Shown: piece after piece, positions 20,778-23,992 of the stretch
Layout: every line of letters begins with the position of its first letter
How positions within the stretch are numbered: position 1 is the stretch's first letter
DNA from: a virus
Reading direction: 5' to 3' (one strand)
Virus record (IMG/VR): IMGVR_UViG_3300045988_100686
Span: 64,001 to 128,000 of that record
Length of the DNA stretch: 64,000 nt
Made by a program: the position numbers and the translations under genes
Notes under the pieces: generated by a model
Seen by the model: the letters and a program-made list of their open reading frames with translations, nothing else
Database searches by the model: none
What the model was told of the DNA's origin: nothing

Positions 20778-21290
20778 TCATCCTTTTGGCATCTGTTTTA
20801 CTGCGTCAGCAATTGTTTTATATAGAAGAGCTCCAGTTGCTACATTACCTGCAGTAGCTAGCGCTCCAGCGGCACGGGTCTCATTCTTTGTAATCCCAAG
20901 ATCCCTAAAGTTTAATGTACCAGACCCATTCTGGATTCTTTGCTTGATTGTCTTGTAAGTGATTAAGAATGATGGTGCTGAAGCAATAAGTGATGCTACT
21001 TGTAGTAAATGTGGTTTTTGACGTGCACTAATAAGTTGTCCAATGTCAATCGTTGTTCTAATTGCACCTTTGATAGCCAAAGCAGCGACAAGAACAAAGA
21101 TTTTACGAATAACAAGCTCTTTTTTGCTCAGCTGAAATCCATCTGTTATCTCTTCTTTTGACATTACTGTATGATCTGGGATTAAGTAAATAGCTGCTAC
21201 ACAGACTACTAGGGGAATACCCTTGCTTATTAAAAACCGTTTTACTTGTTCTCCAATTATATTTGCGAGCATTTGTTCGTCTCTGCCCAT
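20778..21290 (-). CDS. small membrane-associated hypothetical protein
   Basis: 170 aa with hydrophobic segments; ATG overlaps stop of beta-prime gene. Confidence 0.45.
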   Translation of the reverse strand: MGRDEQMLANIIGEQVKRFLISKGIPLVVCVAAIYLIPDHTVMSKEEITDGFQLSKKELVIRKIFVLVAALAIKGAIRTTIDIGQLISARQKPHLLQVASLIASAPSFLITYKTIKQRIQNGSGTLNFRDLGITKNETRAAGALATAGNVATGALLYKTIADAVKQMPKG

Positions 21291-23992
21291 TAGTACCTCC
21301 CGTCTTTACCTTTTCCGAATCCTGTTCCGCGTGCGTAGGAAGGAATAGGATTATAAGAGTGTAATGGACTACGTGATTGTGTAGCAGCGTTATCAATAAG
21401 CTTCTCTTTTAAGTATTTAAATCCAAAGTTAGCCATCCAATCATGTTTGTAGGTTGGGGCTTTATTGGTACCCTTCTGGAAGGGAACAAACTTTGGTGGA
21501 CGCTTGCTAGGATTCTTGCGAATATCTGCTGCTAGCTGGTTATAGTCTACTACGTCTCCTTCAATGAGATCATCAAAATCTCCCGGATCAATAATCTGTA
21601 CGTAGTTTATTAATCCACGAGCGATTACCTCAAAGTTTTTCTTTACACTATCGAGTCCTGCACCATGGTACAGAGTATCAAGACTCTGAATAAACTGCTT
21701 GCGACCAGTATCTATGCCTTTGTAAGGTACAACCTTGCTAATGTTTAGAATACCGTCTGTTAATGGGTCGCCAGCTTCTACTCTATCCCCAACCTTTACT
21801 TTCAGTGTTCTTGTTGGCGGTATGTAGTACTTCTTACGGCCTATGTATACGTTCTGTCCGCCTGCAGGTGCTGCCTGTATGTTTGTGATTGTTCCAGATA
21901 CTTCAGTAATAACTGCTGCACCACTAAACTTAGTGGACATATTAAAGAACGCCTTTACCGTGTTAAAACCAATTGCCTCACCTGCTGCAGTACCTGCTGT
22001 ATGTTTAGATGACAGGCCTAACTGTGTAAAAGGTTCTGAAATAGCGTGAGCAGATACTACACCTACATTTTCACCGATATCAGGGAATTTCAATTTCTCG
22101 TTGTACCCGTAGCAATATTGGCATACACCATCATGTGCTTCACATGTAGCTGGGCTACGTACCTCAACCTGAGGAACTCCACGACGTTTTAATTGTTCAT
22201 AATAGTTGGCATCGATAAACTTGTTTGTCTTCGCCTCAACACGGTTAATGATATTCTTAGTATCGTTAATGTCACGTACTAAACCACGTTTACATCCGCA
22301 ATCCTTTTTGGTAACTACGATATCAAGTACGTTGCCAATAAGTTCTTTTGCTAATGCGCCTGCAGGAGCTACGGATAGCTTTGCACCAACAGTACCTTTA
22401 CGGGTGCCATAGGATGATACAAAGTAATCGGCAGGACTTAGACCCTCGTTGTATGATGTGTGAATCAAGGAAGGAATAAGTTTATCTTTAGGATCTGCTA
22501 CTACTGTAGGACTAGTTATGATCTGCATTACTTGTCCTTTTGACCCCTTGGAGCCTGTATATGCCCACTGCTGGAATGTGTTGTCAGTTGCCTCATCTGT
22601 GAGTTTCTGTGCAAATGCCTGAGCTTTACGTAATATCTTGCCTTTTTCTGCATCGACTTGTTTGGGTGTAAGATCTTTGCGTTTGTCAATATCTGCCAGC
22701 TCTTGGTCAATCTTATTGAAGTATATGTTACGCTTTTTCTTCAACTCATCCATATCGAAGTCAGTTGCTTTGTAAGATACACCTAATCTATAGGCAAATA
22801 ATGCTCCCAACTCTTTTAGACCATCAGCAATCCTGGTATATTCTTTTGGCCATCTCTGTCCTACCTGGGTAAGAAGGCCGCTCATTACGGATTTATTCCA
22901 CACTTTGTCATAATTACGCAATGGCATTGGGAATAGCTCATTGATAAGTACTGCACCTGCAGTTGTCTTAAACTGTCTGTATTGAACAGGGGCGTCTGGC
23001 TTAATCATTCCCATGCGGATATTTTCGTGAAGCTGTTTAACGTTTTGTACAGGAGTGAATCGTGTACTTTTATCAAACGTTGGGAGAGTCTTTGTTGCTG
23101 CAAATAATCCAAACACTGATTCCTGCTGTGGTAACATCATAGGTCCCATGTTGCGGGGTGAGAATAAGTTGTGACTTGGAGTCATTTTCTCCAGTGCTTC
23201 TAACCTTGCTTCTTCCGTTGCAGGTACATGAAGCTGCATGGTATCATAAACTAGAATACCGTTGGCTATGAAAAGTGGAAACTCCGGGACCGTGAAGTCG
23301 TAAGTTATTTCTTCTCGGTCAACTTCTTCTACAGAAGTCACCTCATCCCATACATATGGCAGGTTTAAATATGGATTTGCTGGGTTTACCTTAGCTACAT
23401 CACTGATCTGTACTAGTGCGCCATTCTCTGGTATTCTTACTGCGTTGTAGTCCAAGTATAAACGTGTGTTTACTATTTTGCAAAAGATACCCTGACGTGC
23501 TAGTATTACTTTAGCTAATTCTAGCTCTTGCTTATCCTTTACCTTCCAGTACATACTAGGATTTTCTGTGTTATCTGTGGTATCAAAGTGGACCATTGCT
23601 AACAATGCCGTGCCAAGATCATCTGTTGATAAATTTAGCATATAATATGAAAACTTGTTTGGTTTAAAGTTATCCATTGCAAACTTACGCATAGCTTTTG
23701 CTTGTGCAGTTTTCTTTGGAATATATGATATCATACGCATTATAGGCACGAATTTACCAAGTGCATCCTGGGGAGGTAATGGAGCAAAAAATGTTTCACT
23801 TCCGTTTGTTGCCAATGAGTGGTCATCGGTTACTGTGATCTCGTAGCCACAAGAGGTGCAGATTCTGTACATCTTCCCATGCTCTGTGTGTACACTTCGC
23901 TCAGTGTAATCCATGAATTCATTGGTGTTTGTAGCAGGGCAATAGGTTAATACTTTTCCCTTAACTACAGTTGAGTTACTTTGGGTACTCAT
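21290..23992 (-). CDS. multisubunit RNA polymerase beta-prime subunit fragment (regions D-G) preceded by intein C-terminal fragment
   Basis: TMQLHVPATEEARLEALEKMTPSHNLFSPRNMGPMMLPQQESVFGLFAATK aligns with E. coli [51 protein letters not shown]; bridge-helix block GLSPADYFVSSYGTRKGTVGAKLSVAPAGALAKELIGNVLDIVVTKKDCG; trigger-loop block GENVGVVSAHAISEPFTQLGLSSKHTAG; residues 1-245 look like intein blocks B-G (TVTDDHSLATNG ... YDFTVPEFPLFIANGILVYD). Confidence 0.7.
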   Translation of the reverse strand: MSTQSNSTVVKGKVLTYCPATNTNEFMDYTERSVHTEHGKMYRICTSCGYEITVTDDHSLATNGSETFFAPLPPQDALGKFVPIMRMISYIPKKTAQAKAMRKFAMDNFKPNKFSYYMLNLSTDDLGTALLAMVHFDTTDNTENPSMYWKVKDKQELELAKVILARQGIFCKIVNTRLYLDYNAVRIPENGALVQISDVAKVNPANPYLNLPYVWDEVTSVEEVDREEITYDFTVPEFPLFIANGILVYDTMQLHVPATEEARLEALEKMTPSHNLFSPRNMGPMMLPQQESVFGLFAATKTLPTFDKSTRFTPVQNVKQLHENIRMGMIKPDAPVQYRQFKTTAGAVLINELFPMPLRNYDKVWNKSVMSGLLTQVGQRWPKEYTRIADGLKELGALFAYRLGVSYKATDFDMDELKKKRNIYFNKIDQELADIDKRKDLTPKQVDAEKGKILRKAQAFAQKLTDEATDNTFQQWAYTGSKGSKGQVMQIITSPTVVADPKDKLIPSLIHTSYNEGLSPADYFVSSYGTRKGTVGAKLSVAPAGALAKELIGNVLDIVVTKKDCGCKRGLVRDINDTKNIINRVEAKTNKFIDANYYEQLKRRGVPQVEVRSPATCEAHDGVCQYCYGYNEKLKFPDIGENVGVVSAHAISEPFTQLGLSSKHTAGTAAGEAIGFNTVKAFFNMSTKFSGAAVITEVSGTITNIQAAPAGGQNVYIGRKKYYIPPTRTLKVKVGDRVEAGDPLTDGILNISKVVPYKGIDTGRKQFIQSLDTLYHGAGLDSVKKNFEVIARGLINYVQIIDPGDFDDLIEGDVVDYNQLAADIRKNPSKRPPKFVPFQKGTNKAPTYKHDWMANFGFKYLKEKLIDNAATQSRSPLHSYNPIPSYARGTGFGKGKDGRY

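Follow-up and report, generated by a model that had tools for sequence, protein, structure and literature searches.

A phage RNA polymerase beta-prime gene that probably encodes the C half of an atypically split, aspartate-ending intein at the catalytic loop

In cyanobacteria, the split intein of DnaE (Ssp/Npu) is encoded by two genes that lie far apart in the genome, and beta-prime is split without inteins in the RNA polymerases of phiKZ- and AR9-type phages and in the gamma/beta-prime pair of cyanobacteria. Natural atypically split inteins have N-fragments of 15–37 amino acids (aa) (PMC13014065), and PolB16 OarG is the only natural one known to be cysteine-less (PMC13014065, PMC10189870); with only that one known, better natural cysteine-less atypically split inteins are being sought (PMC13014065, 2026). 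When split inteins were surveyed in metagenomes in 2009, only enzymes of DNA synthesis and repair were listed as hosts (PMC2677866), and our searches of the searchable literature turned up no RNA polymerase beta-prime described as carrying one. Here we analyse a stretch of 64,000 nucleotides (nt) of phage DNA (the window; positions 64,001–128,000 of IMGVR_UViG_3300045988_100686), which has about 40% GC, belongs to a contig of ~147.6 kb and is the reverse complement of positions 76797–140796 of ENA scaffold_53 (ERZ28595695). One gene of the window probably encodes the C half of an intein that is naturally and atypically split, independent of cysteine and terminated by Asp; this half is fused to the C-terminal part of beta-prime and would be trans-spliced with the product of a distant partner gene. 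Its parts, in window coordinates, are:

21290–23992, minus strand: whole gene, a 900-aa precursor made up of the intein C-fragment (aa 1–250) and the beta-prime C part (aa 251–900); open reading frame (ORF) list and Pfam
21290–23242, minus strand: C-extein, all of beta-prime that follows DFDGD, 650 aa plus stop; phmmer and Pfam
23240–23242, minus strand: Thr251, the presumptive +1 nucleophile and first C-extein residue; invariant in the family
23243–23992, minus strand: intein C-fragment, aa 1–250, a HINT fold without its first ~26 residues (block A and first hairpin); Pfam, profile search, AlphaFold2 (AF2) and Foldseek
23243–23305, minus strand: blocks F and G, TYDFTVPEFPLFIANGILVYD, with block F/G YDFTVPEFPLFIANGILVYD at aa 231–250; alignment
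23438–23725, minus strand: middle domain, aa ~90–185, hypervariable with many insertions and deletions; alignment and model
23813–23836, minus strand: block B, TVTDDHSL, aa 53–60, with Thr55 at B:7 and His58 at B:10; alignment
23957–23992, minus strand: N-terminal leader, aa 1–12, variable and not conserved; family alignment
24005–24009, minus strand: ribosome-binding site GGAGG, 12 nt before the ATG at 23992; direct sequence reading
23993–24149, no strand: 157-bp spacer up to a divergently transcribed island; ORF coordinates

The C-terminal 650 residues of the product are RNA polymerase. Solved bacterial beta-prime was matched at E 1e-55 in a phmmer search of the PDB, the colinear alignment spanning aa 249 to ~875, and regions D–H are present in order, including TMQLHVP (aa 251–257), the bridge helix (aa 517–550, with GLSPADYFVSSYGTRKG at aa 517–533), DIVVTKKDCG (aa 557–566) and the trigger loop (aa 640–667, with GENVGVVSAHAISEPFTQLG at aa 640–659). 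Pfam recognizes Intein_splicing together with RNA_pol_Rpb1_3/4/5. The catalytic NADFDGD loop is found neither in the 900-aa ORF nor in the window as a whole: D[FY]DGD is missing from all six reading frames of the 64 kb, and tblastn with gp206 of Salmonella phage Arash (beta/beta-prime-N) found no match there. In alignment to bacterial beta-prime, Thr251 takes the position of the Gln in cellular NADFDGD-Q-MAVHVP, and the cellular counterpart of the predicted junction NADFDGD/TMQLHVP is NADFDGDQMAVHVP. The closest isolated phages, Vibrio phage D69 and Arash, share ~31% identity, over residues 345–900 only. Arash-type phages break beta-prime ~87 residues past the catalytic loop, without an intein (Arash gp206/gp216), and the window protein runs uninterrupted across this point at aa ~344.

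The first 250 residues are homologous to inteins. Intein_splicing matched aa 34–248 against positions 42–153 of the 155 in the profile, at E 1.2e-7 and just below the gathering score; a match that begins at position 42 indicates that the first ~41 profile positions are absent. The same Pfam family matched 23 of the 23 relatives tested (best E 2.2e-12), arguing that the signal is not due to chance. When residues 1–250 of the family were made into a profile and searched against the PDB, the ten best matches were all solved inteins (E 3.4e-6 to 0.05), led by Pyrococcus CDC21 (E 3.4e-6) and followed by DnaB mini-inteins, VMA and PI-PkoII, with three unrelated chains appearing only at E 0.1 and weaker. 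An AF2 model of aa 1–250 built with the family alignment (predicted local distance difference test, pLDDT, 88.7; predicted template modelling score, pTM, 0.85) gave the same picture: the top 37 Foldseek matches in the PDB were all inteins (best E 8.6e-8). Endonuclease-bearing VMA inteins ranked first (query-based template modelling score, TMq, 0.64–0.68), then PI-PfuI, PI-PkoII and mini-inteins; those mini-inteins that align along their full length have TMq 0.31–0.44.

The positions to which roles in splicing are assigned, namely Thr B:7, His B:10, Asp F:4, the terminal residue and the +1 residue (PMC4031507), are fixed. In an alignment of 23 relatives with 50–86% identity, T55, D57, H58, S59 and L60 of block B are invariant, as are T230, Y231, D232, P236, P239, F241, N244 and D250, and Y249 is kept in at least 90%; Asp232, in TYDFTVP, is F:4. 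Block G departs from the standard ending: its penultimate residue is Tyr249 rather than His, and its last is Asp250 rather than Asn. At the C terminus of inteins, Asp, Gln or Glu is known to stand in for Asn; a terminal Asp is rare, and inteins that have it can splice by Asp cyclisation (PMC4031507). Another residue, His35, is invariant 23 residues before the block B His, is preceded by Val (Val, Ile or Leu in the family) with Arg or Lys at −3, and is found in unsplit relatives as well.

The catalytic positions are thus held constant across the 23 relatives while the middle domain decays. In the model this domain comprises helices 94–106, 116–120, 123–133 and 154–166 and strands 135–137, 146–150, 171–174 and 177–180. 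None of the 23 members matched a LAGLIDADG family of Pfam at E up to 0.01. The pattern of helices and strands, together with the better fit to endonuclease-bearing inteins, leads us to read the domain as probably a decayed homing-endonuclease remnant. At the N terminus, the leader of the window protein aligns with a loop of unsplit inteins and so marks the split point; several relatives begin right at M-x-K-VLTY, implying that the first ~12 residues are a dispensable leader. The ribosome-binding site and ATG give the gene of the intein C-fragment a translation start of its own.

An earlier interpretation made from the letters of the window alone (the sequence-only reading) had anticipated much of this. 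It had set beta-prime regions D, F and G colinearly in the product, recognized block B and block F/G upstream of TMQLHVP, placed a +1 Thr where Gln follows DFDGD in cellular beta-prime, and noted that no N-extein is encoded in the ORF or upstream, where there is only a 157-bp spacer; each of these agrees with the searches above. Its degenerate LAGLIDADG-like core has no counterpart among the Pfam sequence families and is supported by the fold alone. The terminal YD in place of HN, which it called unusual, is indeed non-standard, and the same VYD end recurs in unsplit inteins at this site (below).

The arrangement is fixed in a diverse family of uncultivated phages of ~150 kb. Relatives of the window protein fall into 48 clusters with 738 member sequences at 49–99% identity, and all 48 share the architecture over the part that they cover; 47 of them are 734–905 aa long, and the remaining one, P0048 (501 aa), covers only ~56% of the query. 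Across the family the intein C-fragment measures ~225–250 aa. The identical 900-aa protein occurs in four independent assemblies, and its context recurs across ENA, Logan and NCBI.

The sequence-only reading had proposed that the DFDGD loop and an intein N-fragment are encoded elsewhere in the genome, as one half of a split intein, and relatives carry exactly such a gene. In nine IMG/VR relatives, no partner was present within 10 kb on either side of the gene. Scanning viral contigs with a profile for the beta-prime-N of Arash-type phages found 80 loci, all Arash-like and none from the family of the window gene; these loci show that the DFDGD site is an intein hot spot. A plain DNA pattern for NADFDGD gave at least 120 matches, half of them giant-virus Rpb1 among the matches listed. 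A degenerate DNA pattern for Ala-Pro, 30 codons and NADFDGD, scanned over IMG/VR, matched IMGVR_UViG_3300045988_113839, a contig on which the window gene has a counterpart of 68% identity. The partner ORF on this contig runs through beta-prime to the catalytic loop, continues for a 26-residue stub that begins with a textbook intein block A, Ser first, and then stops. The whole protein, of 1757 aa, consists of beta (with a separate, ordinary intein of 384 aa), beta-prime-N and the stub; without the extra intein, 1373 aa remain, in which residue 1347 is the last of DFDGD and the 26-aa stub follows. The two genes on this contig are:

111984–117260, plus strand: N gene, IMGVR_UViG_3300045988_113839
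58231–60921, minus strand: C gene, IMGVR_UViG_3300045988_113839

Partner orthologues from relatives with 51–69% identity end in [N/A]ADFDGD/SV[SA]G[DE]T...[KQ]I[KR][DE]V, with the stop 24–32 aa on. This ending was counted in 8 database proteins, 8 IMG/VR stretches, 15 metagenome stretches and the 50%-cluster representative P0082, amounting to ~30 independent partner sequences. Block A shows no variation at its S, V, G and T, and Ser1 is present in every partner stub. A DNA pattern for the junction had only 8 matches in the 2.9 million viral contigs of IMG/VR, and for all 8 the C-half gene is present too, on the matching contig or in its metagenome. Both halves share one contig in five IMG/VR cases; on the two such contigs with known coordinates, 113839 and IMGVR_UViG_3300001598_000034, they are on opposite strands, separated by 51 and 82 kb.

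The genome of the window has a partner gene of its own. L420, from a contig of 147,669 bp (ENA ERZ1304297, NODE_30), is 100% identical to window positions 52184–64000 over 11.8 kb and extends beyond them to a gene placed as follows:

72121 (window-equivalent), plus strand: start of the partner gene, on L420, 8.1 kb past the window end

This gene lies ~48 kb from the window gene, on the opposite strand, encodes 1371 aa and has the recorded Pfam domains Rpb2_3, Rpb2_6, Rpb1_1 and Rpb1_2; L420 covers its first 309 residues. Its neighbourhood is colinear with that of a family contig at ~65% nucleotide identity. A length of 1371 aa, against 1373 aa for the orthologue with DFDGD and 26 further residues, fits a stop ~25 residues past DFDGD, and we infer that the protein ends in DFDGD and a stub of ~26 aa. 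The sequence-only reading had suggested searching the genome for a beta-prime-N ORF that ends in DFDGD and a block A segment of 20–60 aa: the gene was found and the segment is ~26 aa in relatives, with the ending in the window's own genome deduced from length and orthologues. It had also pictured the partner as a beta-prime N-terminal ORF; beta-prime-N is there, fused to beta rather than standing alone. The 15 metagenome stretches noted above came from a scan of metagenomes, and the window genome's own partner was not among them.

Partner genes carry other insertions too. The beta part of one (L336, 6920–12196) holds an ordinary 384-aa intein with LAGLIDADG motifs, reading C1 ... VIHN/T, and that of P0061 holds another ordinary intein, GDKL/CYDPETEVLT...SGNS/G; such inteins indicate that these polymerase genes collect selfish elements. 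In L337 (region 12003–12600; IMGVR_UViG_3300001598_000034, 51% identity), a group I intron (RF00028, 80.5 bits, E 1e-20) interrupts the partner gene directly behind NRAPSL, and another intervening sequence apparently lies ahead of DYDGD/SVSGDTVVVVKDNETGKIEVKEIRDVD.

In the wider group of phage beta::beta-prime genes, inteins have repeatedly targeted the position after DFDGD or DYDGD. It is occupied by unsplit inteins of 495–542 aa with clear LAGLIDADG motifs in Arash-like phages (L016/L017, L026, L034 and L039), where they begin with Cys or Ser and end in VYD/T[MVL][QM][LIV]H.P. The N-stub and C-fragment of the window family are colinear with these inteins, the split falling in the loop after ...I[GK]D[FV], and similarity to the window C-fragment reaches only 30–37%, over the last 38–46 residues. 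That the YD terminus is common to the unsplit inteins at this site indicates that it belongs to the intein allele itself rather than resulting from damage. Relatives without an intein read DYDGD/TMM, TMQ or TFQ, indicating that Thr at +1 is native to these polymerases. A library-wide HMMER search with the partner protein returned 1379 representatives at E < 1e-30. Single-chain beta::beta-prime fusions of ~2000 aa, with DFDGD at ~1355–1390 and a further 640–700 aa, are common in uncultivated phages, and three architectures coexist: a single chain, the Arash-type break ~87 aa past DFDGD, and the intein split at DFDGD.

Among representatives P0096–P0213, the residue after DFDGD often starts a long insertion, and its first residue varies:

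Cys: P0111, P0120
Ser: P0096, P0133, P0137, P0141, P0165, P0193
Thr: P0156, P0200
Gln-Gln or Gln-Ile (QQ.GSV...): P0164, P0187, P0204, P0211, P0213

The Gln-starting group does not look like the standard start of a class 1 intein. A second kind of split at the DFDGD site occurs in an Arash-like contig (L131, 3795–6136; IMGVR_UViG_3300045988_176085). There, the beta::beta-prime-N ORF ends NADFDGD/FQVSRVIVRFKRNIDVPFKYRLDF-stop, and the next gene, which has its own AAGGAG site and starts MANNVIMRDKT, encodes the rest of an intein with LAGLIDADG motifs that ends VVLSN/TMTYYVP. Position 1 of this intein is Phe, which is unable to carry out the first acyl shift.

The two halves of the window family lie in separate genes, each fused to one extein, as expected of a naturally split intein; the N-fragment is 24–32 aa in all relatives and the C-fragment is long, as in atypically split inteins; and Ser1 in the partner stubs of relatives combined with Thr at +1 defines a cysteine-less intein, the cysteines of the window protein (C18, C45 and C48, for example) being non-catalytic. 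We propose that the ~26-residue N-fragment on the beta plus beta-prime-N protein would dock onto the C-fragment and complete the HINT fold. Ser1 would undergo an N–O acyl shift assisted by Thr55 and His58 of block B and Asp232 of block F, Thr251 would attack the ester, and Asp250 would cyclise in place of the usual Asn, releasing the intein. The predicted product is a single beta::beta-prime chain of ~1995 residues (~1345 + 650) joined at NADFDGD-TMQLHVP, a length that matches the single-chain relatives of ~2000 aa, and the active site of the polymerase would be incomplete until ligation. We infer that the exteins are ligated because residues relevant only to the chemistry are conserved, and because phages with an unsplit intein of this terminus could have no polymerase unless it spliced. 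HMMER aligned the YD of the window protein with the GD of DFDGD, and we considered whether Asp250 might be the third catalytic Asp; this was rejected because DFDGD is already complete in the partners, and the genes with unsplit inteins read DYDGD ... VYD/T in full.

Several points weigh against trans-splicing of the window protein. Splicing is predicted from sequence, and the end of the window genome's partner is deduced from its length and its relatives. A length of 1371 aa is not unique to the split-intein layout, as P0093, of 1372 aa, has an 87-aa tail; an Arash-type tail of this kind is unlikely on the window genome's partner because it would duplicate residues 251–343 of the window protein. 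Ser1 inteins are reported to have an NX motif in which a conserved His is directly preceded by Arg or Lys (PMC10189870), and this strict Arg/Lys-His motif is not found in the family, in which Val, Ile or Leu precedes His35. Asp250, Tyr249 and a Phe at F:13 are non-canonical and could mean slow splicing or cleavage only, and the Phe1 of L131 suggests that non-splicing states at the DFDGD site may be tolerated.

The last two points feed the only serious rival, which we nevertheless think quite unlikely: that the intein halves merely dock the pieces of the polymerase, or that the C-fragment cleaves itself off by Asp cyclisation, leaving the exteins unligated and beta-prime broken at DFDGD and held together non-covalently. 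Beyond the Tyr-Asp in place of His-Asn, the lack of His at F:13 and the Phe1 of the L131 split, this proposal draws on the tolerance of phage multisubunit polymerases for beta-prime breaks (Arash-type, ~87 residues on and without an intein), on phage Aeh1, which assembles a broken NrdA without splicing (PMC3045599; also PMC2677866), and on the Ser1 split intein PolB16, for which cleavage at the C terminus is a known side reaction (PMC10189870). However, pure docking would need none of the residues that are kept, and yet Ser1 is invariant in ~30 N-fragments and Thr55/His58, Asp232 and Asp250 are invariant at 50% divergence. The break would also fall inside the Mg-binding loop, where, going by known RNA polymerase structures, retention of a 250-residue domain is implausible, and the unsplit YD/T inteins sit in otherwise intact genes and must splice for a polymerase to be made.

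We give very little credence to two further explanations. The gene might be one exon of an intron-disrupted or RNA-trans-spliced beta-prime, its Hint-like region being a functionless remnant, an alternative that the sequence-only reading had also raised. The group I intron in the partner gene of L337 lends this some plausibility, but no Rfam match was found in window positions 20500–25500 at E up to 0.1, the partner lies ~48 kb away on the opposite strand (51–82 kb, also on the opposite strand, in relatives), the window gene has its own ribosome-binding site and ATG, and strong purifying selection acts on the intein region exactly at the splicing residues. It is about as improbable that misassembly or decay has broken a contiguous beta-prime gene with an ordinary intein. 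The window does come from metagenome assemblies and the end of its own partner is deduced, but the identical 900-aa protein and its context appear in independent ENA, Logan and NCBI assemblies, the 48 clusters (738 sequences, 49–99% identity) keep the same start and architecture, and the N-fragments always stop 24–32 aa past DFDGD.

If trans-splicing by the window family is real, these phages have a multisubunit RNA polymerase whose Mg-binding loop joins the rest of beta-prime after translation, from genes ~48 kb apart, and the fixation of the arrangement across the family resembles that of the cyanobacterial DnaE intein. Unsplit, adjacent-split and distant-split inteins at the DFDGD site form a natural series for the origin of split inteins. 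For protein engineering, the family supplies dozens of natural variants with an N-fragment of ~26 aa, a size within reach of peptide synthesis, and an unusual terminal Asp. More speculatively, trans-splicing could act as a switch for phage transcription, a complete polymerase forming only when both divergent units are expressed and a slow or conditional ligation has run; we consider this unlikely, and similarly doubtful is its corollary that the split is a timing device with a slow-cyclising Asp terminus, something more than a frozen parasite. In its weaker form, the idea keeps only a putative natural Ser1/Thr+1 split intein with a short N-fragment and Asp chemistry, for which no cysteine would be needed.

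The surroundings of the gene offer further observations. No sigma-70-like promoter was detected in the spacer 23993–24149; two sites occur in 23700–24600, both outside the spacer and at about chance level. The sign of the GC skew flips at ~24 kb and again at ~34 kb, in agreement with the way the coding strand changes around the divergent island. On the other side, a 170-aa gene (20778–21290, minus strand) overlaps the stop of the polymerase gene (ATGA at 21290) and has a weak match to a Dit-like tail protein (E 0.0023, below cutoff). The partner gene of relatives (L232) has the large terminase ~3 kb downstream of it; a terminase is found close to this gene on related contigs, and tail-fibre-like and PAAR genes occur in the flanks. 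The Dit-like neighbour and the nearby terminase in relatives place both polymerase halves among virion and packaging genes. The divergent island adjoining the polymerase gene (24529–30974, plus strand) encodes a ubiquitin-like conjugation set, parts of which are matched by the relatives L013 and L015 (tblastx):

24529–24759, plus strand: 76-aa ORF, ubiquitin-sized, ending ...QAQTKG (C-terminal Gly), with no Pfam match
26774–27607, plus strand: Prok-E2_D, 25.5 bits against a cutoff of 25
27607–29472, plus strand: Prok-JAB, 26.2 bits against a cutoff of 25
29469–30974, plus strand: ThiF/E1, 30.8 bits against a cutoff of 28.1; PADLOC 'E1-E2' at 2e-7

Among described systems, AceL-TerL, GOS-TerL and VidaL (PMC13014065) resemble the window intein in their very short N-fragments (15–37 aa, compared with 24–32 aa), long C-fragments and viral origin, and in being split shortly after the first hairpin or helix of the HINT fold. 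They differ in having Cys1 and a terminal Asn, where the window family has Ser1, Thr+1 and a terminal Asp; in their hosts, which are terminase and other genes rather than RNA polymerase; and in the C-fragment, which in the window family reaches ~240 aa because a decayed endonuclease-like domain is kept. PolB16 OarG is similar in Ser1, Ser or Thr at +1, a short N-fragment and a host that is a viral polymerase from metagenomes (gut). Its N-fragment is 15 aa, its terminal residue Asn, its NX motif Arg/Lys-His and its host a B-family DNA polymerase, whereas the window family has an N-fragment of ~26 aa, a terminal Asp, Val, Ile or Leu before His35 and the beta-prime of a multisubunit RNA polymerase as host. 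The DnaE split intein, like that of the window family, is fixed in its lineage and sits in the catalytic subunit of an essential polymerase; unlike it, DnaE is canonically split, with an N-fragment of ~100–123 aa and a C-fragment of ~36 aa (PMC13014065), has Cys1, Cys+1 and a terminal Asn, and belongs to a cellular DNA polymerase.

The unsplit Arash-like inteins share the insertion point, the VYD/T end and colinear splicing blocks with the window intein, but are continuous, retain an intact LAGLIDADG endonuclease and lie in host genes that have an additional, downstream break of the Arash type. Split beta-primes without inteins (Arash gp206/gp216 and others) are likewise encoded by two genes, but there the break falls between domains and the pieces stay separate, whereas the break of the window family falls in the catalytic loop and is flanked by intein halves with intact splicing residues. 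Judged by their sequences, the window family thus appears to differ from known natural split inteins in its terminal Asp and missing penultimate His, its retained endonuclease-like domain, its host and its insertion site.

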